Shown here: one piece after another, positions 1,269 to 46,132 of the stretch | Position numbering within the stretch: the stretch's first letter is position 1 | Layout of the letters: the number at the start of each line of letters is the position of its first letter | The notes under the pieces: generated by a model | What the model saw: only the letters and a program-made list of their open reading frames with translations | Told to the model about the DNA's origin: nothing | The model's database searches: none | Translations under genes and position numbers: made by a program | Virus record (IMG/VR): IMGVR_UViG_3300037054_000044 | Location: 1-64,000 of that record | Strand: one strand, 5' to 3' | Length of the DNA: 64,000 nt | Source: a virus

Positions 1269-1298
1269 TAACTAAACTAAGACTCAGGAGAACTCAGA

Positions 1299-1910
1299 AT
1301 GACACTCAGAGGTGGAGACCAACTCGCAGCAGGCGCTCGCACGGCCCAATTCTCAGCAGGTGGCAGTGCGGTGAACGATGCAATCGAATTGAAGAACGTA
1401 GCACCAGAAGTAGAGGAACTAGGCAGCGGAATCACGGTGATTGATCGCCGCTCGCGGTTCGACTCAGAACCAGTGAAGAAGGCAGAGCCTAAGTTTCCAG
1501 AGAAGGAATACGGAGCGTTTCAACCCATACTTGACCGTGTGCTAGTCAAACGTGTGGCAGAAGACAAGAACATGGAGCAGTTGGAAGATGGCTCTATGCG
1601 TGACAAACGCACCGGGTTCATCATACCAGCGAAGTACAGACAACATTCAAACGTGGGGGTAGTCCTAGCGGTTGGTGACTTCGTAGTCATGGGTGGAGTC
1701 AAGACTCCCCTATCGGACATCATCAAGCCAGGGGACAGGGTTCTGTTTGGAGAATACAATGCCGAGAAGCTGAAGATTCCTGATGCACAAGTCCAAGCGA
1801 TGTGCGATGCGATTGGCGTAGAGTTCGAAGCCAGCGAAGACTTGGACGTAGTTAGAGTGCAGGACATCCGTGGTGTTTACAAACCAGTGGAGGTCACCAA
1901 TTATGTCTAA
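1299..1910 (+). CDS. groES: GroES/Cpn10-like co-chaperonin with N-terminal extension
   Basis: FQPILDRVLVKR...GFIIP...GVVLAVG...IKPGDRVLFGEY...VQDIRGV. Confidence 0.8.
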   Translation: MTLRGGDQLAAGARTAQFSAGGSAVNDAIELKNVAPEVEELGSGITVIDRRSRFDSEPVKKAEPKFPEKEYGAFQPILDRVLVKRVAEDKNMEQLEDGSMRDKRTGFIIPAKYRQHSNVGVVLAVGDFVVMGGVKTPLSDIIKPGDRVLFGEYNAEKLKIPDAQVQAMCDAIGVEFEASEDLDVVRVQDIRGVYKPVEVTNYV

Positions 1911-2202
1911 CCTAATCATTGACGCAAATGATTCTCCGATCCAGCCAGCGTTCGATCCATACTGGGATAAGCCGATGTCTAGGCGTGAGGCTCATAAGTT
2001 ATTCATGAGACTAGCAGCAAATGACAACGAACTGATGGGTATGGCAGACACTGCAGCCTTATTGCTTAATTTCATCTTGGAGAAGAAGCTAGTTATCGTG
2101 GATCGCAAAGAGGTTGACGATTACGTTGAACTGAAGAAATCACAGATGGCGGCCCAGCGCGAGCAAATGAAGAAGGACTCAGATGTCCAGCCCAACGGAT
2201 AG
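1903..2202 (+). CDS. Hypothetical protein
   Basis: ORF with GGAGG RBS, overlapping its neighbours. Confidence 0.6.
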   Translation: MSNLIIDANDSPIQPAFDPYWDKPMSRREAHKLFMRLAANDNELMGMADTAALLLNFILEKKLVIVDRKEVDDYVELKKSQMAAQREQMKKDSDVQPNG

Positions 2203-2917: not shown

Positions 2918-2961
2918 GCTCAGAAAACTCAGAACGGCGCACAGCGCCAGAAGGACTCAAA

Positions 2962-3795
2962 ATGGACGCAACATGCAGTTCACCCACAACCCGTGGCGAT
3001 CTCAGCGCGGCGATGACTAAGGCAAACAACATCGACTGGAACTTCTCAACAGCAGATTATATGTTGAGCCGACCAGCAGATTTTTTTGTGTACTTATTCA
3101 ACATTGCAAAGCTGGAATACAAAGTTTCTCGTCTGCCCATCATCAAAGAGATGACCATCCCTGCTCGTAAAGAGGGAGAGAAGTATGCTCGCGTTACCAA
3201 GTTGCCATCTCCTTTCAAAATGCCTAAGGGCAATGTAGACTCCAATGACATTGACATCGTTATCCTCGACGGACGGCGCATGGCGATGGACATTGTTAAT
3301 CCAGATAACCTATCCTTAGATCAGGATGCTGTCATCACAGGTTCTTTCTCTGTGGGACAGAACATGGGTAATCTAGGCGTGTTCTGGTCCTTGAATGAGG
3401 AACCAACCGAGGCTGAGTTGGCTGCAGCAACGCGGCGCATGGAAAAGCATTATCGCAGTCTATTGACAGATGCGCGTTCGCTAGAGACATCAAACCCACA
3501 GGCTTTGCCTGCGGTGCTTACACCAACACTGCATGCGGCAGCGGATTACTTCCACGAGACGTTCAACTGGCACAAGAAAGAAGTGCACTTGGAGAACTGC
3601 CCACGTTGCGGTTCACCAGCGCGTGTCGGAGCACCTTTCCATCCGATGGAAGGCGGCGGTCTGTGTATTGGAGATTGGGATGCAGCCATCAAGTCTGGAG
3701 TCCGCAGTCGCGCACAGGCTTACGAAGCAACAGAAGACGAGCGGTATGCACCAAAACAACCAAAGGCAACTAAAAGTTTGCCTATGGAAGAGTAA
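2962..3795 (+). CDS. Hypothetical protein with CxxC
   Basis: 277-aa ORF in the operon. Confidence 0.7.
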   Translation: MDATCSSPTTRGDLSAAMTKANNIDWNFSTADYMLSRPADFFVYLFNIAKLEYKVSRLPIIKEMTIPARKEGEKYARVTKLPSPFKMPKGNVDSNDIDIVILDGRRMAMDIVNPDNLSLDQDAVITGSFSVGQNMGNLGVFWSLNEEPTEAELAAATRRMEKHYRSLLTDARSLETSNPQALPAVLTPTLHAAADYFHETFNWHKKEVHLENCPRCGSPARVGAPFHPMEGGGLCIGDWDAAIKSGVRSRAQAYEATEDERYAPKQPKATKSLPMEE

Positions 3796-3804
3796 TGCCA
3801 AAGT

Positions 3805-4052
3805 CGCGGCCAACAGGTGGATAATAGTGTTGACCATCCCAGACCTGTCTTGGGTTAACACAGCCGCGCACATTTTAGCAACACGATCTTGGCAAACAAA
3901 AGAGCCTACCTTGCGTAGCTGTTCTGAGTCCAGTGAATTTGTGGGCTTTTAAGTTTGCCATGTAATTTCAGCACTTACGACCTTAGGGGGAAGTGTGAAC
4001 TAGTAACGCAGTGATCTGAGTCCACGGCGCAACTTTGTTCCGCTTCCCCCTA
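3805..4052 (+). ncRNA. Structured intergenic RNA: a pseudoknot domain plus two long hairpins with WUCUGAGUC loops
   Basis: Stems 3890-3909/3941-3960 and 3984-4000/4037-4052 contain G.U pairs on the plus strand; near-identical 9-nt loops at 3922-3930 and 4014-4022. Confidence 0.7.
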
Positions 4053-4090
4053 TGCTTATTTTGTACCTGCTCGGTTCATTACCAAGCAGC

Positions 4091-4134
4091 GCGGGATCGA
4101 CTCGTAATCGGTCCCGCAAATCCTTTACGAGGGG
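4091..4134 (+). promoter_or_regulatory. SD-occluding pseudoknot leader, copy 2
   Basis: Stem 4091-4100/4108-4117; loop CTCGTAA pairs with TTACGAG 4125-4131. Confidence 0.8.
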
Positions 4135-4141
4135 AACTACC

Positions 4142-4726
4142 ATGAGACGATTAGATGGAAAACCAGCAAGTTATAAATACAGAAATTTGACTGGAAATAC
4201 TTTTGGAAAACTGACCGCACTTTATACTCTTACTAGAGAGGTAGGAGAGCGTAGGTTTTGGATGTGCCGATGTGAGTGTGGAGTAGAAAAACTAATAAAA
4301 GCGCACAACCTTACCAGTGGAGAAACCAATAGTTGTGGATGTGCAAAGTTAGCATCATCCAGAGCCAATATAGGAATTGCCCACTCAAAGGCTGTGAAGG
4401 AAGGCTCTGCATTTCGTCACTTGTTAGCAATGTACAAGAACAATGCAAAGACTAGAGGTTTTATTTGGGAACTGACAGCAGAAAAGTTCAAAGAGTTGAC
4501 TTCTTCTCCATGCTATTACACAGGAACAGTTCCTAGCAGCATTGTTAAGGCACAATCGGGAGAGGTGTATACGTACAACGGGATAGACCGTTTGGACAAC
4601 ACCAAAGGTTATACCTTAGAGAACTCTGTTGCATGCTGTGGAGAAGTAAACATGATGAAGAAAGCGCTTTCTAAAGAGAACTTCATCGAGTTGTGCAGAA
4701 AGATTACAGAGAGGTTTTCAAAATGA
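4142..4726 (+). CDS. HNH-like putative homing endonuclease
   Basis: LTGNTFGKLT...WMCRCECG N-domain; PCYY...GIDRLDNTKGY..EN.V.CC..N. Confidence 0.8.
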   Translation: MRRLDGKPASYKYRNLTGNTFGKLTALYTLTREVGERRFWMCRCECGVEKLIKAHNLTSGETNSCGCAKLASSRANIGIAHSKAVKEGSAFRHLLAMYKNNAKTRGFIWELTAEKFKELTSSPCYYTGTVPSSIVKAQSGEVYTYNGIDRLDNTKGYTLENSVACCGEVNMMKKALSKENFIELCRKITERFSK

Positions 4727-5577
4727 GTTCTCCAACTATTAATTTACCACAAGCGAGTGGTTCTACGTCCCTTGCTACCATTGCAAATTTGGCACGTAGC
4801 CTTGTCAATGACACGCAAGCAGGTTTGACAAACACTCCCGGAGAAGGCCAGATACTCGTGAACAATCCCGCCGTTGCTCCGTTCATGCAGCCTTTTTTGA
4901 ATTCAGCAATTAGAAAACTATACCGAATGCTGAGAAACGTCGGTGAGCCTGTTTTGATAAAAGACAACATTATACTCACTGGACTTCCGATTATCAACAG
5001 CCCGACGCAGGGACTTGGAGCGGTGGACCCTGCTGTGCAAACTGTACTGTCAACGTCTGGGTACTTCGACGGCACGCAGTTGTGGCCCAACTTCCAACTG
5101 CCAGGGGATATGTTGTACCCCACATCCTTGTGGGAGCGCCAAACTGGAAGCAATGATGTTTTCCATAGGATGGATGCACCGTCCGGTGGCTTGCCTAGCG
5201 CTATGCAAGGTCCGTTTCTAAAACAATGGGAATGGCGCAACAACAACCTGAACTTCCGTGGAGCCACGCAGAACGTGGACATTCGCATGAGGTACTATTG
5301 TGCATTGCCACAGTTCTTCAGTCAAACATTGGATTTCGACTCTACGTATGTGCCTGTATTAGATTGTACGGACTTCTTGGCTTTTGAAGTTGCTGTTTTA
5401 TATGCGTCCATGCTTGGCTCTCCGGGCTTGGCAGCACTACAAGCATCAGTTGCTGATCACATGTTCCAACTCAAAAATGCGAACATTAGGAGAATGCAGC
5501 ACGAGGATTTTGCACGCATTCCCTTTGGAAATAGTGACGGAGATTTGAACAACGAGTTTTCGTTCCTGTCGTGGTAA
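4723..5577 (+). CDS. Probable head-tail adaptor / tail tubular protein A-like
   Basis: N-terminal 'LATIANLARSLVND...FLNSAIRKLY' pattern, size and position (inference). Confidence 0.5.
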   Translation: MSSPTINLPQASGSTSLATIANLARSLVNDTQAGLTNTPGEGQILVNNPAVAPFMQPFLNSAIRKLYRMLRNVGEPVLIKDNIILTGLPIINSPTQGLGAVDPAVQTVLSTSGYFDGTQLWPNFQLPGDMLYPTSLWERQTGSNDVFHRMDAPSGGLPSAMQGPFLKQWEWRNNNLNFRGATQNVDIRMRYYCALPQFFSQTLDFDSTYVPVLDCTDFLAFEVAVLYASMLGSPGLAALQASVADHMFQLKNANIRRMQHEDFARIPFGNSDGDLNNEFSFLSW

Positions 5578-7168: not shown

Positions 7169-7179
7169 GGAGACTCAGT

Positions 7180-8878: not shown

Positions 8879-9550
8879 GTGCCTGTGTACATCAACAACC
8901 GCGATAGGTTGGCAAGCACCAAAGCGCTAACAGAATGGCTGCTTCAGTCAGGAACTAAGAATGTCACCATTCTGGACAACGCGAGTACCTACGGACCCCT
9001 CCTAGAATGGTACAGCAAGCCCCCAGAGGGCGTAGAAGTTGTAAAGCAGGGTAATCTAGGCCCGTGGGGCTTCTGGGGCTGTAACAGGCAGGAAACGCAA
9101 GGAACACCCTATGTGGTGACGGATTCGGACCTTGTACCGTCCGAGTGCTGCCCTTTGGACCTTGTAAATAGGCTTTTGAGTCTGCTTGCGGAGAACCCCG
9201 GTTGCGGCAAGGTTGGCCCCGGACTGCGGCTCGACAACATACCAGACCTAAGTAGGGACTTCATCACTAACGGAGACGGAAAAGGCTGGGAAGGTGAAGG
9301 TGTATTCTGGAAGCGTAGGCACTCCTCGGGAGCATTCAATGCGCCGTTGGACACAACCTTTGCAATTTACAACGCATACTCCCCGTGGGTAGGCGCTGGA
9401 TGGCAGAACCTTCGTATGGATATGCCGTACGTTGTGGAGCACACTCCATGGTACTTAGAAAAACCTTTTTCAGAAGAGGAACAGTATTACCGCGACCACG
9501 CGGACAGGGTATGGTCCCATGTAACTTGGCCCAGCCCAATCAACAGTTAG
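8879..9550 (+). CDS. GT-A fold glycosyltransferase-like protein (start uncertain)
   Basis: INNRDR...ILDNASTY...VVTDSD...APLDTTFAIY. Confidence 0.7.
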   Translation: MPVYINNRDRLASTKALTEWLLQSGTKNVTILDNASTYGPLLEWYSKPPEGVEVVKQGNLGPWGFWGCNRQETQGTPYVVTDSDLVPSECCPLDLVNRLLSLLAENPGCGKVGPGLRLDNIPDLSRDFITNGDGKGWEGEGVFWKRRHSSGAFNAPLDTTFAIYNAYSPWVGAGWQNLRMDMPYVVEHTPWYLEKPFSEEEQYYRDHADRVWSHVTWPSPINS

Positions 9551-9558
9551 GACTCAGA

Positions 9559-10290
9559 ATGGTTACCGTAAACACATGCGGGGGATTAGGCAATCAACTT
9601 TTCCAGTATGCCTTTGCACGCTCGTTGGTAGGAAGATACCATGTGAACCTTACAGACGCTTGCAATCAGTACGGTTTGCAGATAAACCACTTCAACATTA
9701 CTCTTCCCGTCATTCCACACCCAGGCTGGCGCTGGATTGCAGAGCGATCACTTAGGTTTGATCCAATCCCAGAGATAGAAGAGAACTCAATTCTTGCTGG
9801 GTACTGGCAGTGCGAGAAGTATTTCAACCACATCGCAGATACATTGAAAACAGAGTTGACCCTTAGGGACGCGCCAAGCGCAGCGGCCCAGAAGTTTGCA
9901 GAGCAAATAAGCGCAACTCCGAACAGTGTAATGGTTCACGTACGACGTGGCGATTACCTGACGTGGGCGGCTCAAAGGCATGGCGCTCTGCCTATGGGTT
10001 ACTATGAAAGTGCAGCAGCTAGGTTCAAGGGGCACAACTTTTTCCTGTTCTCAGATGACCCAAGTTGCACACTGCCTGTTCCACATACAAAAGTACAGTG
10101 CACCCCGCACGAAGAAATATGGCTGATGAGCAAATGCAAGGATGCAATCATAGCCAATAGCAGTTTTTCATGGTGGGGCGCGTGGCTAGGGGCCGACAAG
10201 ACAGGGACAGTGATAGCCCCCAAGCAGTGGTTCAGAACAGGAAACGAAGACGCAGCGGATATCGTCCCAGATCGTTGGCTCAGATTATGA
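9559..10290 (+). CDS. GT11 alpha-1,2-fucosyl/colitosyl transferase
   Basis: GGLGNQLFQYA, GYWQ, HVRRGDY, FSDD, IANSSFSWWGAWL. Confidence 0.92.
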   Translation: MVTVNTCGGLGNQLFQYAFARSLVGRYHVNLTDACNQYGLQINHFNITLPVIPHPGWRWIAERSLRFDPIPEIEENSILAGYWQCEKYFNHIADTLKTELTLRDAPSAAAQKFAEQISATPNSVMVHVRRGDYLTWAAQRHGALPMGYYESAAARFKGHNFFLFSDDPSCTLPVPHTKVQCTPHEEIWLMSKCKDAIIANSSFSWWGAWLGADKTGTVIAPKQWFRTGNEDAADIVPDRWLRL

Positions 10291-10448: not shown

Positions 10449-11401
10449 AGAAAGCACTTATAACTGGCGTTACGGGCCAAGATGGCTCTTACTTAGCAGA
10501 ACTGCTGCTTAGCAAAGGCTATGAAGTGCACGGCATCGTGCGCCGCTCCTCCTCCCTCAACACGCAGCGTATTGACCACATCTTTGACCAACTGCATCTG
10601 CACTTCGGTGACCTCAGTGATGGCAGTGCACTTGGCTCCCTTCTTTCCAAGGTGAAGCCTGAAGAGGTTTACAACCTTGGTGCGCAGTCGCACGTGCGCG
10701 TGTCATTTGACTGCCCCGAGTATACGGCGGATGTGGACGCCATGGGAACCCTAAGGCTCTTAGAGGCAGTAAAGTCGCATTGCCCAGAGGCGCGGTACTA
10801 CCAAGCCAGTTCTTCGGAACTGTTCGGCAAAGTGTTGGAGACCCCACAGCGAGAGACTACGCCATTCTACCCCAGATCGCCCTATGGAGTAGCTAAGTTA
10901 TTTTCCTACTGGTACACAGTGAACGCTAGGGAGCAGGGCATGTTTGCCTGCAACGGTATCTTGTTCAACCACGAATCCCCACGGCGTGGCGAGACTTTTG
11001 TGACGCATAAAATCACTCTTGCTGCGGCACGTATAAAACTAGGGTTGCAAAATAAGTTGCTTCTTGGTAACCTAGATGCTAGGCGCGATATTGGGTATGC
11101 AGCCGAGTATGTGGAAGGAATGTGGCGCATGCTGCAACAGTCCAAGCCTGACGATTACGTTTTAGCGACCGGAGAGACTCACTCTATAAAAGACATGCTT
11201 GGAGTGGCATTTAATCACGTAGGTTTGGACTGGTCGAAGTACGTAGGTATAGATGAGCGTTACTTTAGACCTACTGAAGTTGATATACTTCAGGGAGATG
11301 CTTCAAAAGCTAAGAGAGAACTTGGGTGGGAACCTAAAGTGAAATGGGATGAGTTGTTAACCATGATGGTCGAAGCCGATTTAAAGGAACTCAGAAAATG
11401 A
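10445..11401 (+). CDS. gmd: GDP-mannose 4,6-dehydratase
   Basis: [48 protein letters not shown]. Confidence 0.97.
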
Positions 11402-11934
11402 ATAAATTTTACACATATATGTGGTTACGGGAAGACGGAACACCATATTATGTAGGAAAAGGTCACGGCAATCGTAGCCATTGGAGAGGTATTAAGTCAA
11501 AATTAAAACCTCCTACTGAAGATAGAATAATAGTGCAAGAATTCGATTCAGAGGAAGATGCGTTTTTTGCAGAACGATTCTTAATTTCTTACTACGGAAG
11601 AAAAGACACAAAACAAGGAATACTAGTAAACCACACGGACGGCGGTGATGGAGTAACAGGCTTACGACACACAGAAGATTCCAAAAAAAGAATAGCAGAA
11701 GGTCTAAAAGGTAGGCACTATGGTATAGGAAGAGTGCCTTGGAACAAAGGGTTAAAGGTATCAAAAACCCTACGTAAACCACTGTCTGAAGAGCACAAGG
11801 AAAGAATAAGGCAAACTTTAAGATCAAAAAATATAAAACCACCAAATCAGACAGGCTACAGACACAGTGAAAGTGCTAAAGTAAAAATAGGAATAGCCGC
11901 TAAGGAAATGTGGAAGAAGGCTGCACATGCTTGA
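11398..11934 (+). CDS. GIY-YIG-like/NUMOD3 putative homing endonuclease
   Basis: [19 protein letters not shown]...[17 protein letters not shown] repeats. Confidence 0.85.
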
Positions 11935-13616: not shown

Positions 13617-13630
13617 TAGGAGACGACTCA

Positions 13631-14806
13631 GTGATAACTTTAGGGCAACTCAATATAAGCGAGCAAGGAAAGAAGTACGTCAACGACTGCCTAGACTCAA
13701 ACAGGCTGTCTAAGGGAAAGTACACGGCAAAGTTTGAGCAGGACTTTGCAAAGTTGCATGGCTGTAGCCACGGAGTGTTCTGCAACAGCGGAACATCCGC
13801 CCTGCAAATCGCGTTGGCAGCACTCAAGGAACGCCACAGGTTTGACTACGAAGACGGGGACGAAGTGTTGGTCCCAGCCATTACGTTCATCGCCACATCG
13901 AATGTGGTGTTGCAGAATAACCTGAAGCCCGTGTTCGTGGATGTTGATCCAGTAACGTTCAACATGGACCCAAACAAGATTGCAGAGAAGATTACCCCTA
14001 GGACCAGAGCCATTATTCCTGTTCATCTCTTCGGCCTTCCAGCCGACATGCCGAGGATTATGAGCATCGCCCATCACTACGGACTGGACGTAATAGAAGA
14101 CTCATGTGAAACAATGTTTGCTGGCATTGACGGCAGATCAGTAGGAACGTTTGGAGACATGGCGTGCTTCAGCACCTACGTGGCGCATCTCATTGTAGGT
14201 GGCGTGGGCGGCTTGGTAACAACCAATAACCCAGCGTACGACGAACTGTGCCGCAGCCTCATGGCGCACGGTCGGGACAGCATCTATACCAGCATTGACG
14301 ATGACGACGACATAACCAAGAACATGATAGAGCGTCGTTACAAATTTGACCGCGTAGGGTATTCGTACCGCTGCACAGAGATAGAGGCGGCAATCGCCCT
14401 GTCTGAACTGGAGCGGTGGGCGTTTAGCATCAACCGCAGACGCTGTAATGCTACTCTTCTAACCGTTCTGCTAAAACCATACGAAGATAAACTGCAGCTA
14501 TCAACCATACCTGAAGGGTATGAGCATTCGTATATGATGTTTCCATTTGTCTGCAAGGCAGGGGTGAATCGAGACGCCTTGCTGCTACACATGGAGCAGA
14601 AGGGAATTGAAACCCGCTTTATGTTCCCGTTGTTGAGCCAGCCCATATACAGGAAGTTGTTCCCAGGGCTTGCTGAGCGGTACCCTGTGGCAAGTCGTCT
14701 GGAGAAGCAAGGGTTCTTTATTGGGATGCACCAAGGTCTAACCCCAGCGGATATGCACTTCGTTGCTCAGACAATTGCGGAGGGACTATGCGCCCAGCGA
14801 CAATAG
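13631..14806 (+). CDS. PLP-dependent DegT-family enzyme with His at the Schiff-base Lys position (ColD-like 3-dehydratase)
   Basis: NSGTSAL, PVHLFG, IEDSCE, FSTYVAHLIVGGVGG; lacks the Cys cluster after HGRD. Confidence 0.8.
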   Translation: MITLGQLNISEQGKKYVNDCLDSNRLSKGKYTAKFEQDFAKLHGCSHGVFCNSGTSALQIALAALKERHRFDYEDGDEVLVPAITFIATSNVVLQNNLKPVFVDVDPVTFNMDPNKIAEKITPRTRAIIPVHLFGLPADMPRIMSIAHHYGLDVIEDSCETMFAGIDGRSVGTFGDMACFSTYVAHLIVGGVGGLVTTNNPAYDELCRSLMAHGRDSIYTSIDDDDDITKNMIERRYKFDRVGYSYRCTEIEAAIALSELERWAFSINRRRCNATLLTVLLKPYEDKLQLSTIPEGYEHSYMMFPFVCKAGVNRDALLLHMEQKGIETRFMFPLLSQPIYRKLFPGLAERYPVASRLEKQGFFIGMHQGLTPADMHFVAQTIAEGLCAQRQ

Positions 14807-15235: not shown

Positions 15236-16015
15236 TTGAAACCAGTGACTATAGCAGTTCTAGGGCGGTTTCCTGATATTTTCGACAGGTTCGTAGAGAG
15301 TGCAAACCAGTACCTTCCTACTATTCCCAAGGTGTTTGTACGGGACGGTGACCTAATCACAATGCCCACTGGTGTAATGTGGACAAGCATACAAGGTGAA
15401 GGTCCATTTTCTAACCCAGCTTTTGCAAACATTGCGTGGCAAGCCGCCGCGCCTGATAGCGACATTCTGTACTGTGGAGACGATGTGCGCTTCCTTCAGC
15501 CCAACACGTGGGAACTGCTGCAGGAGATTGCGTACTCAGACCCAAGCATAGGCGTACTTTCCCCGCGCATCATAGGGGCGGCAGGCAACAACTTGCAACT
15601 ATATCCAATGGCAGAGGGCATCACCTACTCACATCAGCGTCTGGCTTACATCTGTGTGTACATCAAACGAGAAGTCATAGAAAAAGCTGGTTACATGGAT
15701 GAGGAGTTTGGTGGTTCTTACGGATATGATGATGACTCGCACTGTTGGAAAGTACAGCAGTCAGGGTACCAGTTGGCAGTGACCTCAAAAGTGTCCGTAG
15801 AACATAAGAATGCTGGCAGCACCTTTGCTCGCACAGGACCGGGCACAGATTGCCGAACAGGAGCAGAGAAGTTCCAAAATAAATGGGGAATAAAGGCTGT
15901 GTCGCAGATAGCCGCAGACGTGGCTAAGGACATGGTTGTGGTTCGACAAACACTTCCTCCTTTGCAGCCTATCGCAAGGACGGGAAGGTCACCGCAAAGA
16001 CTCAGGAGAGGGTAA
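15236..16015 (+). CDS. GT2-family glycosyltransferase
   Basis: YCGDD, GYMDEEF..YGYDDD...VEH. Confidence 0.8.
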   Translation: MKPVTIAVLGRFPDIFDRFVESANQYLPTIPKVFVRDGDLITMPTGVMWTSIQGEGPFSNPAFANIAWQAAAPDSDILYCGDDVRFLQPNTWELLQEIAYSDPSIGVLSPRIIGAAGNNLQLYPMAEGITYSHQRLAYICVYIKREVIEKAGYMDEEFGGSYGYDDDSHCWKVQQSGYQLAVTSKVSVEHKNAGSTFARTGPGTDCRTGAEKFQNKWGIKAVSQIAADVAKDMVVVRQTLPPLQPIARTGRSPQRLRRG

Positions 16016-20076: not shown

Positions 20077-20256
20077 ATGATGTCAGGAGTTTTGCTGAGA
20101 AAAGGGAAGTCAAACGGACTGGTCAATATGTACCTTGCCGTTCCAGCAGATGACAGTACACACGTGAGCACAGACCGTGTGATCTTTGTACCAGTACCAC
20201 TTGATTCAACATTCAAAGAGTGCGTAGATGCACTTACGAAAACATCGCTGGACTAA
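20077..20256 (+). CDS. Hypothetical protein (59 aa)
   Basis: GAGGAG RBS; open frame. Confidence 0.55.
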   Translation: MMSGVLLRKGKSNGLVNMYLAVPADDSTHVSTDRVIFVPVPLDSTFKECVDALTKTSLD

Positions 20257-20896: not shown

Positions 20897-23800
20897 CCTC
20901 GAACAGCTCGGTTAACTAAGAAGTAAATAGCCGCTCTGTATAGCAATATGCAGATGATTCATCGAGAGAATTCAGGGAATCACCTAGTAATAGGTCAATC
21001 CTGAGCCGAGCCGCGTAAGCGGAAGGTGCAACGACTATCCCTTAGCAGGGAGTAGGGAACAGTGTTCCCGAAGCACTCGACACCCGTCAGGGTGATGATA
21101 TAGTCTGAACTTGTGGGTAACTACAAGAGAGAAAATGGAAACGATTTTCTCGCAACATACTTGACAGCTTCTTTAGATACGATGGGCGGTCTGGTCACCA
21201 ACTGCAACGCTCAAGACCTTCCCGAAGGTGCCTCCCCAAGGTGCTGGGATTGCGACTTCATTATCGGCAGCGTGTTCACTCGCGCTGGCCTGTCCTCAGT
21301 CTATTCCTATGCATCATCTTTGAACATCACGATGCTGCAAGTAGGCAGTGGCAGCGTTGGTACATTTTCGTACTCAGGAAATTCGACTCCCACGGTGAAC
21401 GAAGGGTTCGTGCTTCAGGGATTCTCAGGAAGCGCACAGTCTCTGAACGGGCAAACGATCTTCGTGATCTACGTCAACGCCATCGCTGGTACCTTCACAG
21501 CCGACGTTGCGCTCCCAGCAGGGACGTACATTAACCTTACGGGAACTGCCGTGTCAATCGTTGGGCAGTTCCTTGGGCCTAACATTCCTACCGCAGCCGT
21601 GTCCGTTGCGCTGAGCGGTGGAAACGCATGGCAGACGCCCAACAATGTCATGGGTACCGTAGGTTACGCAACGGTACTGTCGGGGTCCACGGTAGTCACA
21701 TCTCAAGTACCGCTGCTAGCAGGCAGCCTTCCAATAGGCGGCACCGTACTGTGGAACAACCCTAGTTTCCTGAACCACCCCAGCGGAGGCAACACCTTCG
21801 CCAGCATAACCATTGCTGCAGGGCAGGCGCAGAACCCACTCATAGCGTACAACGGTGCACTTGCAGTCCCAGCCGACGCGATTGTTAACGGCGTAACGGT
21901 TGCAGTGTACGCTGGTAGCATGAATGCAGGTGGTTCACTGAGCATTCAACTGGCAGATGGAGACACAGACACAGCCGTAGGCACAGCAGTGAACATTCCC
22001 TTAGCTGTTAACTCAGCTAAAGTGTACTCTGTTGGTTCTGCATTTTACCAATGGGGCACCACGCTGACGCCAGCCATGTTAAATGGCACGCACCTAGGCG
22101 TGATCGTCAAAGCCGCAGTTACCAGTGGATCGACATTCATCTGGGCCAACGGTGTTATAGTCACGGTGTACTACACTTTGGCAGGAAGTTCTCAGGTACT
22201 GAAGACAACTGGGTATGTGTTCTCTGCCCCCTCGACTGCAGGCGTCACAGGCTTCGGGGTCACATTCCAAGCCTTCACCACAGCGACCAACACACTGAGT
22301 GTGCAGTTGCTGAAGAACGGCATTGCAGTAGGTCAGCCAAAGACGCTGGCTCTTACCACGACTCCCACCATATACTCTTTGGGAGCCCCCAGTGATCTAT
22401 GGGGCAGCACGTGGACGTACGCTGACATCAACAACACGAGTTTCGGCGTAGCCATTGTAGCTTCCGATAGCGGCACGGTCTCTATCAATGACCTAGACGT
22501 TCTGGCCTACATTACGCCAGCACAAGTCAATTTCAACTACGTCAAGTCATACATACAAGATGACGGACAGATCGACACCTTGGCACTGGATGCCTCAGGG
22601 CTCATGTGGAAGGAAGACGTAACGAGTGCCCCCGGAGCACTGGCAGTGGTACTGTCAGGCATACTCCCCGGTTCATTTGCTAAAAGTGCCACAGCCGATA
22701 ATAACGAGTACATCATGTTTTCGGACCTAGCAATAGGAACGGACAGACCCCGCGTCTATTTCAGAGGCGAGCAGTTCCTTCCCCTATCGCAAGGTGGTCC
22801 CGGTGCACCTCCTACGGTCGTGGCATCACAAAGCACGGCAGGCGGTACGTTAGCGGTCACGGATTACTCTTCTGATGGAACGGTTATCACTTTCACCTTC
22901 ACTGCTGTTGCTGGCTTCACGCCCGTCATCAACTCCCTGTACACCATTCAAGGGACAGGCGTAGCAGCGCTGGACAACCAGACGTTTGAAGTCGTTGCCC
23001 CAGTATCTGGCACAACCTTCACAGCGTCGTTCGTGCACACGCCTATTTCCGGCAGCGGATTGGTAGGAGCAACGGCTGTCCCGACAACCTCCTATGGAAT
23101 CACGTCCATCGTGCAGGATGGAAACACTTCTAGTACCCCACTTCAAGTTGGTTCTGTTCCATTCAATGGACAGATCACAACGTGGAGTGCTCAAGGACAG
23201 TTTGGAACTGCAGGAACCACGGTACGGTTCTACTACGGCAGTGCAAACTCTCCGCAGAACCAAAGCCTGTTGGACACCATAGCGGCGTATGGCACAGCGT
23301 ACGTGTACATCGTAAGTACTGCAGCATGGCCGACAGCCACCACCATAGGAAGTGGAACATACCAAGTTATTAATACTGGAACTGCTATACCGGGATTCGG
23401 TGAGCACCAACCTGTGCCGTGGTTTGAAATTGCATACGGCTCCTCTAGCGCAGTAGGTGGTCAGCACTGGGGCGATGCTCTAAACACGGGCAACACAGGG
23501 CATTGGCAACAGACGTTGGCAACCGTCACTACTGCAGTGGCTATACCGGGATTAGGTCCGGGTGGCAACCTTACCATACAAGGTGTGAACACATCTTGGG
23601 ATAAAACTTGGACAGTTCTGCAAGCCTTAAAAAGCAATGTGATGAGCATTAGTAGCGTTTCCATGGATGGAAGCGGTGTGGCAACATACGACTACAATGT
23701 GACCAGCGTTCCTGCGGTACTACCTGCGGCTGGTGAAGAAGTCACCATCACAGGCACTACCAATAGTATTGGTGCTCCGGGGATATTCAACACCGTAGGC

Positions 23801-26915: not shown

Positions 26916-26927
26916 AGGGAGAACTCA

Positions 26928-36483: not shown

Positions 36484-36555
36484 TATCGGTAATATGCGCA
36501 ATTCATAGCAAGCGGGGTAAAAGCCCTCGCAGACATTTGAACTCAGGAGACTCAT

Positions 36556-42818: not shown

Positions 42819-43354
42819 TGCGATGCGCATGTGGTTGCGGTACAGATGCAGGCGTATACAAACGCACCCACAAGTCCTCGGGACACGTAGAGGGTGAACC
42901 TAAGAGATTCGTGCAAGGACACAACTCCATGCATGGAACGCATATTAAAGTATGCAAGAGAGGTCACCCTAGGGTCGAAGGGGAGTTAAAGTGCAGGGTT
43001 TGCAGAGCAGCGGCTTGTAGAAATTGGGGAAAGAACAACCCAGAGAAACTAAGAGCATTGAATCTGAAGTTCAAATTCAAAATAACACCTGAAGTAATTG
43101 ATGAGAAACTTACGAAGCAGAACAATAGGTGTGCTTTATGTGACTCTTTATTTTGCTCTGAAAATCTTCCTTGCGTAGACCACAGCCATAAGTGTTGCTC
43201 AGGCGACCGCAGTTGCGGCAAATGCGTACGTGGCTTGCTTTGCAGTACCTGCAATTCTGGGCTAGGTTATCTGCATGATGATGTAACGTTGTTGGAAAAA
43301 GGCATTCAGTACCTCAAGAAATGGGAGACTCAGTGGAACAACAGGAATACATAA
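42818..43354 (+). CDS. Endonuclease VII-like putative homing endonuclease
   Basis: CACGCG N-module; QNNRCALC...VDHSH...VRGLLC..CN. Confidence 0.85.
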   Translation: MRCACGCGTDAGVYKRTHKSSGHVEGEPKRFVQGHNSMHGTHIKVCKRGHPRVEGELKCRVCRAAACRNWGKNNPEKLRALNLKFKFKITPEVIDEKLTKQNNRCALCDSLFCSENLPCVDHSHKCCSGDRSCGKCVRGLLCSTCNSGLGYLHDDVTLLEKGIQYLKKWETQWNNRNT

Positions 43355-43626: not shown

Positions 43627-44349
43627 ATGGCAATTGACTCAGTGATATTTGGATTCGGCTATCGGGCTCGCTCTGGTAAAGACACAGCCGTTGCCGAGAT
43701 AATTAAACAGCGCGGATTGCTGCCAGTTGGACCCCAAGAAGACGGGTATACAATTGGAGCAAACGTAAACAACGACCGCTACGACATCCGCAAGTACTCC
43801 TTTGCAGACGCATTGCGTAGCGAAGTGGATGCCGAGTACCGCAAGGCAGGTAGTGTGGAGAAAGTTTTTAGTCCTGACTACTGCTTCGCAAAGAAGGGGT
43901 ACGTTGTGACTCTGCCTGAATGGGTTCAGTATGACCCCAATGGGGAAGTCAACGAACAGTACCCACGCGGTAAGCAGCGCTCCTTCCTGCAATGGTGGGG
44001 CACAGAGTATCGCCGCTCAGATGACGACAACTATTGGGTCAAGCGATTGGCCGAACAGATCGAACTGGAGAAACCCCAGATCGCGCTGATCACGGACATG
44101 AGATTCCCGAACGAGATGTCGTTTGTACTGCAGTATGGCGAGACAGTTCGCGTGGATCGTGCAGGGCTTCCGCCTAGCACCCACGCATCGGAAACGGCTC
44201 TACAAGATGTGTCGGACGAGGACTGGTCAATAATTTTGGAGAACAATGGGACTTTAGAGGAGTTTCTGGAAGGTGCGGTCACGGCCTTCGATGAACTCTT
44301 GCTGAACTTTCCACAACAACGAAATGTAAGACAGGCGCTTGGAGTCTAG
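43627..44349 (+). CDS. Deoxynucleoside monophosphate kinase
   Basis: GYRARSGKDT, SFADALR, LQWWGTEYRR, ITDMRFPNE, HASE. Confidence 0.9.
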   Translation: MAIDSVIFGFGYRARSGKDTAVAEIIKQRGLLPVGPQEDGYTIGANVNNDRYDIRKYSFADALRSEVDAEYRKAGSVEKVFSPDYCFAKKGYVVTLPEWVQYDPNGEVNEQYPRGKQRSFLQWWGTEYRRSDDDNYWVKRLAEQIELEKPQIALITDMRFPNEMSFVLQYGETVRVDRAGLPPSTHASETALQDVSDEDWSIILENNGTLEEFLEGAVTAFDELLLNFPQQRNVRQALGV

Positions 44350-45173: not shown

Positions 45174-45189
45174 TCCAAAGGAGACTCAG

Positions 45190-46056: not shown

Positions 46057-46132
46057 AGGGGGATAAGATAACTGACTAATCGGCTCGTTTCCAAAACCTG
46101 CAATCTGGGTTCAAATCCCAGTCGCCCTACCA
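46057..46132 (+). tRNA. Degenerate tRNA-Trp(CCA)-like gene
   Basis: AGGGGGA/TCGCCCT-A-CCA acceptor; perfect T arm CTGGG-TTCAAAT-CCCAG; TTCCAAA loop; anticodon stem mispaired. Confidence 0.65.

Follow-up and report, generated by a model that had tools for sequence, protein, structure and literature searches.

The stretch analysed here, hereafter the window, comprises positions 1 to 64,000 of the IMG/VR virus record IMGVR_UViG_3300037054_000044 and represents the first part of an 85,205-bp single-contig phage genome. Up to approximately 46.7 kb the genes form a plus-strand block with virion, chaperonin, and sugar-modification genes, and beyond this point a minus-strand block carries replication-type genes. 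In the plus-strand block, a spacer of 347 nt between a gene for a 277-residue protein and a homing-endonuclease gene contains a twin-hairpin RNA element, the loops of which are complementary to a short tag located at the translation starts of a subset of the phage genes. The features of this locus are as follows.

2962..3795, plus strand: conserved gene for the 277-residue protein with a CxxC motif; the RNA element is always downstream of it
3796..3880, plus strand: hairpin 0, a GC-rich stem-loop 3' of the stop codon, then a short U run; the sequence differs in relatives
3871..3887, plus strand: conserved, single-stranded A/U-rich linker of the AUUUUAGCAAC type, 5' of the seed hairpin in the alignments
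3888..3962, plus strand: seed hairpin A; the base CUU...AUG is conserved, and the basal and apical stems covary
3922..3930, plus strand: loop A, TTCTGAGTC, 9 nt, complement of GACTCAGAA
3983..4052, plus strand: seed hairpin B, with a G5/C5 base located where single-hairpin relatives have a terminator-like hairpin
4014..4022, plus strand: loop B, ATCTGAGTC, 9 nt, complement of GACTCAGAT, closed by GUG/CAC
4053..4065, plus strand: U-rich tail 3' of hairpin B, conserved in the alignments
4142-4726, plus strand: HNH/EndoVII-like homing-endonuclease gene, the next gene after the 347-nt spacer

The 347-nt intergenic region was predicted to fold better than 100 of 100 shuffled sequences (z -4.67), and its minus strand folded about equally well (z -4.32). 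The plus-strand RNA was favoured by stem U-G/G-U pairs in the alignment of relatives, namely, at columns 10/78 (4 sequences), 12/76 (6), 13/75 (5), 116/168 (8), and 133/149 (4), because these pairs become A-C mismatches on the other strand. A previous sequence-only reading of this DNA had proposed two 9-nt loops at 3922-3930 and 4014-4022 and had taken G.U pairs in the stems as a sign of a plus-strand RNA; the loops were found in place, and the alignment bore out the argument on the strand. Loop A is closed by CUG/CAG plus one G-U pair. Hairpin 0 is possibly a leaky terminator, and the U-rich tail is a possible 3' end of the RNA. A word similar to the A/U-rich linker also occurs 3' of hairpin A (3963-3975), and each seed hairpin of the aligned relatives is preceded by a conserved word rich in A and U (AUUUCAGUA type), which may act as a processing or chaperone-binding site. 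When positions 3000-5000 were scanned against 4227 Rfam families, including C4, with E values up to 10, the sole match was a chance one to an unrelated long non-coding RNA model.

The relatives of the element were collected through the neighbouring protein. A search with the 277-residue protein yielded seven viral contigs, and the RNA element was located downstream of the gene in all seven. Metagenome contigs were added by pattern scans; since these patterns impose the loop, they were excluded as evidence for loop conservation. Among 20 distinct twin-hairpin versions, 18 of the 26 consensus pairs showed compensatory changes, and 93.8% of the alignment cells were paired, compared with 76.3% in shuffles and approximately 48% with slid partners. 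The covariation score was 0.508 against 0.179, a value reached by none of 500 shuffles, and the covariance model found precisely one copy of the RNA per genome. Moreover, a 20-sequence alignment of the homologues of the 277-residue protein led to 24 further, distant viral loci at 39-57% identity. In 22 of these 24 loci, a hairpin with CTGAGTC in an 8-10-nt loop was located downstream of the gene and on its strand. In the set retrieved by protein rather than by loop, CTGAGTC was invariant in 24/24 distinct versions of hairpin A and in all 32 distinct hairpins when A and B were taken together. All eight pairs of the basal stem showed compensatory changes in this set, and the five pairs of the apical stem were 85% paired versus 47%, with a covariation of 0.90 versus 0.20 (0/500 shuffles). 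The comparison with relatives and Rfam, which the sequence-only reading had put forward as a check, gave loops conserved without exception on covarying stems and no Rfam family.

The number of seed hairpins varied between one and two, most of the distant relatives having a single one. In a subclade of five relatives (L215, L219, L220, L222, and L224), the loop of hairpin 0 holds a target-like (A)CTCAGA approximately 60-100 nt upstream of the seed loop, and its stems covary; hairpin 0 lacks such a loop in the window and in close relatives. This subclade provides a third, independent place in which the complementarity of loop and tag is kept, and it hints at an internal kissing contact between the loops of hairpin 0 and the seed hairpin in these five relatives.

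The position of the element relative to the gene for the 277-residue protein was also informative. In L211, L212, L225, and L226, the stop codon and the start of the seed hairpin lie 5-13 nt apart. Most of the distant relatives have one seed hairpin and, 3' of it, a GC-rich hairpin ending in a U-rich tail, which was called terminator-like in two of the four loci scanned and not in the other two. In the window, hairpin 0 stands between the stop codon and seed hairpin A. Because the seed hairpin of relatives adjoins the stop codon and is followed by a terminator-like hairpin, the RNA element can be read from its arrangement as a structure of the 3' untranslated region (3' UTR) of the message for the 277-residue protein. 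Hairpin B of the window may derive from a terminator stem in which a second seed loop arose, since it occupies the same place as the terminator hairpin of the others and has a similar tail. The protein itself, which shares its distribution with the RNA, contains an invariant CxxC, one more invariant Cys, and an invariant His. At least 179 homologues were found, none of which is named, and Pfam, PHROGs, NCBIfam, a PDB profile search, and a protein atlas gave no usable match.

The word complementary to the loops was then evaluated at the start sites of the genome. For this purpose, 53 starts of the plus-strand block were curated by hand, three of which (9559, 13631, and 43333) were picked with knowledge of the motif. 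ACTCAG occurred within 12 nt upstream of the start at 8 of these 53 starts (binomial p 1e-10) and ACTCA at 11 (p 3e-11), whereas the tag was found at none of the 60 minus-block starts over the same 12 nt upstream and the complement TGAGT at none of the 53 plus-block starts. A count free of gene calls, in which any ATG or GTG with a Shine-Dalgarno (SD)-like word and an open frame of at least 60 codons was accepted, agreed with the curated result in the window genome and in three relatives. ACTCAG was not enriched window-wide (50 copies versus 41.9 expected; 12 of 100 shuffles reached 50). Approximately 12 of the 26 plus-strand copies in the block lay away from starts, where about 11 were reckoned to be expected by chance; the tags inside coding sequence are at chance level. 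The invariant loop word exactly complements the word that ranks first at start sites apart from the SD. Typical tagged sites read AAGGACTCAGATG or GGAGACTCAGATG, and a recurrent double tag, ACTCAGGAGACTCAG, flanks the SD in the window and in relatives, which fits an RNA with two loops. The tagged starts of the window are listed below.

1280..1309, plus strand: three tags around the start (1299) of a GroES-like gene, two of them flanking the SD; tag in 8/8 orthologues
2175..2184, plus strand: tag GGACTCAGAT running into the ATG of a 244-residue gene (2183), a 10-bp match to loop B; kept in 3/9 orthologues
2953-2960, plus strand: weakened tag GGACTCAA at the start of the gene for the 277-residue protein; tag kept in 9/10 orthologues
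7171..7178, plus strand: tag before a 98-residue gene (7180); kept in 3/9 orthologues
9550..9559, plus strand: tag GGACTCAGAA before a GT11 glycosyltransferase gene (9559), a 10-bp match to loop A; kept in 3/3 orthologues
11387..11394, plus strand: tag before a homing-endonuclease-like gene (11398); the same tagged start belongs to the orthologue of the next gene (11927) in relative G001
13624..13631, plus strand: tag overlapping the GTG start of a DegT-family aminotransferase gene
15998..16005, plus strand: tag immediately 5' of the SD at a galactosyltransferase-like gene (16015); kept in G001
26921..26927, plus strand: shortened tag GAACTCA before a 208-residue gene (26928)
36539..36555, plus strand: double tag flanking the SD of a 148-residue gene (36556)
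43326..43333, plus strand: tag overlapping the GTG of a possible 56-residue gene, a weak gene call
45182..45189, plus strand: tag before a 238-residue gene (45190); predicted duplex -13.9 kcal/mol

The tagged genes are mixed in function and include a co-chaperonin, glycosyltransferases, a DegT aminotransferase, and several genes of no assigned function, together with nucleotide-sugar epimerases in relatives. The sequence-only reading had listed the motif at some 14 plus-strand starts and had seen no such enrichment on the minus strand. The positional test run here upheld the contrast (11/53 versus 0/60), and all listed motifs exist, but the copy at 10277 (GGCTCAGAT) is not at a well-supported start and that at 43636 lies downstream of the ATG. 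Chaperonin and sugar-modification genes were present among the targets as that reading had proposed; the lysis-type genes that it had also named were not found among them. The leader of the gene for the 277-residue protein (2895-2960) holds four tag-like words in 66 nt, namely, ACTCAG, GGCTCAGAA, ACTCAGAA, and GGACTCAA. At the start of this gene, a base other than G follows ACTCA in the window and in all nine tagged orthologues. The homing-endonuclease-like gene at 11398-11934 had no homologue in six other genomes, and yet its start is tagged (comparison with G001, locus L129). In G001, this tagged start belongs instead to the orthologue of the next gene, which suggests that the mobile gene inserted itself directly 3' of the tag and captured the start site.

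Similar to the window genome, three full relative genomes (83-104 kb) each had 8-12 tagged candidate starts, mostly on the strand of the RNA. Across 16 distinct loci of distant relatives, tags marked 60 of the 601 candidate starts compared with 7.2 expected (p 4e-35), and the enrichment at same-strand starts extended to relatives whose neighbouring protein is as low as 42% identical. Tags are retained at orthologous starts despite divergence of the flanking sequence, as at the GroES-like gene (8/8), the gene for the 277-residue protein (9/10), and the GT11 gene (3/3), and other orthologues show turnover of the tag (3/9 for both the 244- and the 98-residue gene). Hairpin and tag co-occurred in 22/22 distant loci bearing the hairpin. 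Of the two hairpin-free distant loci, L232 has no tag and L231, which belongs to genome G009, is tagged. Consequently, the expectation of the sequence-only reading that motif and loops would be kept or lost together was supported by the 22 hairpin loci and broken by G009. Loop and start motif were both present and conserved across relatives; the co-variation of the two that had also been looked for did not occur.

The loops were predicted to pair with 8-10 nt covering the end of the SD, the spacer, and the start codon. The strongest predicted duplexes comprised 10 contiguous bp, between the start at 2183 and loop B (-17.7 kcal/mol) and between the start at 9559 and loop A (-17.4 kcal/mol), and five more sites gave -12.4 to -13.9 kcal/mol. 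Loop A ends with the complement of ...GAA and loop B with the complement of ...GAU, which fit the two common spacings ACTCAGAATG and ACTCAGATG.

Evidence on transcription came from assembled contigs of RNA libraries. In the covered parts of four runs, the contigs were deepest over the gene for the 277-residue protein; in three of these runs the depth peaked at 207, 44, and 37. A 421-nt contig from an L002-type relative spans hairpin A and hairpin B and extends into the next gene. Run X14 contains 0.92 of the sequence words; in run X20, hairpin B was covered solely by the contig of a relative, and runs X17-X19 contained no contig over 3813-4214, an absence of cover that is uninformative. These contigs agree with the element being transcribed but show nothing beyond that.

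The element is thus a conserved structure whose loops are complementary to a positionally enriched word with which it co-occurs. From this, we consider it rather probable that the phage RNA pairs with the tagged start sites, most likely repressing them. The RNA would be encoded in the 3' UTR of the well-transcribed virion-block gene for the 277-residue protein and would present (N)NCUGAGUC in the open 8-10-nt loop of each of its one or two seed hairpins. The loops would base-pair with the private tag (G)GACUCAG(A), which lies between the SD and the start codon and often also just upstream of the SD. The putative targets are about a dozen same-strand late genes, including the GroES-like co-chaperonin gene, the gene for the 277-residue protein, and those of several sugar-modification enzymes. 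Pairing of 8-10 bp across spacer and start codon would block 30S binding, and repression is therefore the most likely outcome, with the tagged frames repressed or damped inside long polycistronic late transcripts and with feedback on the RNA's own host gene. The RNA could act from within the message for the 277-residue protein or after processing. The sequence-only reading had described a trans-acting small RNA (sRNA); the specificity of the tag for same-strand starts and the conserved loops agree with it, but the element in relatives is a 3'-UTR piece of the message for the 277-residue protein. The accumulation of the RNA, its pairing in the cell, and the sign of its effect are inferred here. 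Activation by opening of a closed start site was considered and dropped, as target and non-target starts are equally accessible. Repression is favoured because the target starts are not pre-folded, so that an opening mechanism finds no support.

Several observations weigh against this explanation. The RNA runs were available as assembled contigs, which give neither strand nor ends, and DNA carry-over is possible. The terminator scan of the window did not call hairpin B and its tail as a terminator, and the promoter scan called no promoter of its own, in particular no sigma-70 promoter, at the RNA element; accordingly, a sigma-70 promoter or a classic terminator at the element was dropped. The predicted accessibility does not single out the targets (0.52 unpaired at target starts versus 0.53 at non-target starts). 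Several probable targets, namely, the gene for the 277-residue protein and, in relatives, one of approximately 500 residues, resemble structural genes with abundant expression, which sits oddly with simple repression. Moreover, genome G009 (complete, 48 kb, loci L233-L235) carries the 13-mer TAACTCAGGAGAA before three genes, with starts at 20186, 23245, and 24383 of the contig, and no recognisable or convincing seed hairpin was found at the six CTGAGTC sites inspected; the tag may thus have a role without the RNA. The tagged genes of G009 include a homologue of the gene for the 277-residue protein. Loop and tag never change together, both being invariant across the family, and the comparative support consists of their co-presence and not of compensatory change between them. 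Finally, the terminase-related phages G004-G006 and G008 had 0-2 tagged starts each and no covariance-model match except a weak one in G008 (E 0.008), and they are weak controls because they share little with the window phage beyond the terminase.

Other explanations were weighed against the same data. The tag could be a self-sufficient translation signal, such as a private enhancer or a site for a phage or host protein, with the hairpin as a secondary modulator or decoy. The three tagged starts of G009, the location of tags at genes that are probably highly expressed, and the published account of analogous tags, which leaves an RNA or a protein partner open (PMC3203893), speak for such a signal. 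However, a protein that binds single strands cannot recognise a word as well as the word complementary to it, an unrelated origin would leave unexplained why an invariant loop matches the top non-SD start word exactly over 7-8 nt, and hairpin and tag occur together in all 22 hairpin-bearing distant loci; we consider this explanation unlikely. It is also rather unlikely that tag and RNA form a phage-private addressing system instead of a plain repressor, in which the RNA, together with the co-inherited 277-residue CxxC protein, would give tagged messages a late switching or positive function. For instance, tagged messages might be handed to ribosomes, or their start sites might be shielded from a shut-off nuclease. 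A role restricted to its own message would suit the position of the hairpin in the 3' UTR directly behind the stop codon, where it could serve stability or termination or kiss the tag at the 5' end of that message or the loop of hairpin 0, the other tags being incidental. The start of the gene for the 277-residue protein is indeed tagged in 9/10 orthologues, and five relatives have CTCAGA in a hairpin 0 loop on covarying stems. Nevertheless, this role would not account for the 8-12 starts that are tagged in each genome at unrelated genes as far as 40 kb away, or for the conservation of tags at orthologous starts, such as the GroES-like gene (8/8), and hairpin 0 has no such loop in the window and its close relatives. 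We regard this restricted role as quite unlikely.

The loops might instead address a host RNA, such as the 5' end of 16S rRNA or a host message, which the phage tags mimic or compete with. The 5' region of 16S rRNA contains GGCUCAGA, and a loop would pair with CUCAGA of this region if one U before CC is bulged. This U is invariant in 32/32 loops and pairs perfectly with the phage tag GACUCAG, and the phage tags are perfect matches that are positionally enriched, which makes a host target very improbable. It is most improbable of all that the word acts at the DNA level as the site of a DNA-binding protein or a methylase, with the hairpins being irrelevant, although tag GACTC and loop GAGTC are two strands of one word that contains GANTC. 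The strict orientation bias at starts (11 versus 0 for the complement) contradicts it, and the reverse copies sit exactly in the loops of covarying stems that use G-U pairs, which points to single-stranded RNA. The host-RNA and DNA-level explanations therefore fit poorly, because of the invariant loop U, the strand bias, and the covarying stems, and repression of tagged starts by the phage RNA is the reading that we retain.

The surroundings of the element were also characterized. The endonuclease gene at 4142-4726 is inserted precisely between the U-rich tail of the RNA and the next gene, and two small hairpins (4065-4122) are present or absent together with this insertion. In endonuclease-free relatives (L002, L005, L154, L158, and others), the U-rich tail of hairpin B runs straight into the SD of the gene that follows. 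On this ground, the idea that the endonuclease gene is carried by a group I intron was rejected, and the comparison indicates that the endonuclease is a free-standing insertion. Elsewhere in the window, a group I intron lies near the start of a large tail gene (20903-21127; Rfam RF00028, with 66.1 bits where the gathering score is 50), and a single tRNA-Trp (CCA) gene (46057-46132) is located where the plus-strand block switches to the minus-strand block. These two were the only Rfam matches when the whole window was scanned at gathering scores. Near-identical DNA was found in peat and permafrost metagenomes of 16 studies (2018-2025), as well as in five metatranscriptome runs; the phage lineage is widespread in such soils, as the metagenomes of these 16 studies attest. 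A search of deposited phage genomes gave neither DNA nor protein similarity, and a search of bacterial and archaeal genomes found neither a copy of the RNA element nor a relative of the 277-residue protein.

Provided that the pairing takes place, a single small RNA together with a tag of 7-8 nt would sort the frames of long late transcripts into two classes, so that genes transcribed together could yield different amounts of protein with little machinery. RNA-based control by a virulent-type phage over a whole set of its genes would also be a rare case, and under the addressing system a general, undescribed layer of viral translational control would be at hand. Moreover, a short orthogonal pair of tag and RNA could serve as a translational control part. 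The literature search found no paper in which a hairpin RNA is linked to a private start-site tag that it complements, and searching for the letters of the motif yielded nothing but cloning primers. The sequence-only reading had recognised no described system; this holds as far as Rfam is concerned, but start-site tags (PMC3203893) and sRNAs with identical loops (PMC4615179) are in print.

Comparison with known systems places the element among several kinds of RNA regulators. The 3'-UTR-derived sRNAs of enterobacteria, of the CpxQ and SroC type, are cut from the 3' end of a message and share its terminator, and RsaE of Staphylococcus is an sRNA with a C-rich loop. The same is described for RNAIII of Staphylococcus (PMC4615179). 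The window element resembles these RNAs as a putative regulator at the 3' end of a message and as a carrier of identical loop seeds that would pair with many start regions; it differs in that they are cellular, with mapped ends and chaperones, whereas it is predicted from sequence and its targets carry a dedicated tag. Another counterpart is the c4 antisense RNA (Rfam RF01695), which is processed by RNase P. In phages P1 and P7, the loops of c4 are complementary to the ribosome-binding region and block translation (PMC12197685). Like c4 (PMC12197685), the window element is a structured RNA encoded by a phage, and its loops could pair at the ribosome-binding regions of phage messages. Unlike c4, which in that account concerns one operon (ant) and immunity, it faces approximately a dozen scattered late-block genes with a common tag, lies in the 3' UTR of a virion-block gene, and gave no covariance-model match to C4. 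The tags occur at no fewer than 11 starts over 1.3-45 kb of the plus block, and no antirepressor was found.

The cuckoo RNAs of Alphaproteobacteria (CcsR, alpha-r14/NfeR1) consist of adjacent hairpins with the same loop motif, the stems of which vary by compensatory change, and their loops are thought to occlude the ribosome-binding sites of several messages (PMC4615179). The modular design, the identical loops, the variable covarying stems, and the variation of hairpin number between relatives are shared (PMC4615179). However, the cuckoo loop CCUCCUCCC is a generic anti-SD sequence, whereas here NNCUGAGUC in 32/32 hairpins mirrors a private tag beside the SD. The cuckoo RNAs are also chromosomal with two to four hairpins (PMC4615179), whereas this element is phage-borne, has one or two hairpins, and would target the phage's own genes. 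Binding by Hfq is a further mark of the cuckoo RNAs.

Finally, the tag itself has a counterpart in the start-associated sequences (SAS) of Cluster K mycobacteriophages, a short asymmetric repeat located a few nucleotides from the start codons of 11-19 genes (PMC3203893). According to the same source, SAS is nearly always in one orientation, and several phages have a single copy on the other strand. Its function was given as unknown in 2011 (PMC3203893) and as still unverified in 2025 (PMC12699233), and the words 'antisense' and 'small RNA' are absent from the accessible text of the latter article. Both tags are phage-specific, mark a gene subset in one orientation, and are conserved across subclusters, or relatives, at genes of different families (PMC3203893). 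They differ in that the SAS word GGGATAGGAGCCC includes the SD and is located in the non-structural arm (PMC3203893), whereas the tag (G)GACTCAG(A) lies in the virion/late block. Moreover, the reverse copies of the present tag sit in the loops of a conserved, covarying hairpin, which suggests that this hairpin is the reader of the tag. Thus, for private start-site tags, which have been in print since 2011 with Cluster K SAS, the hairpin described here offers a concrete and testable candidate reader.

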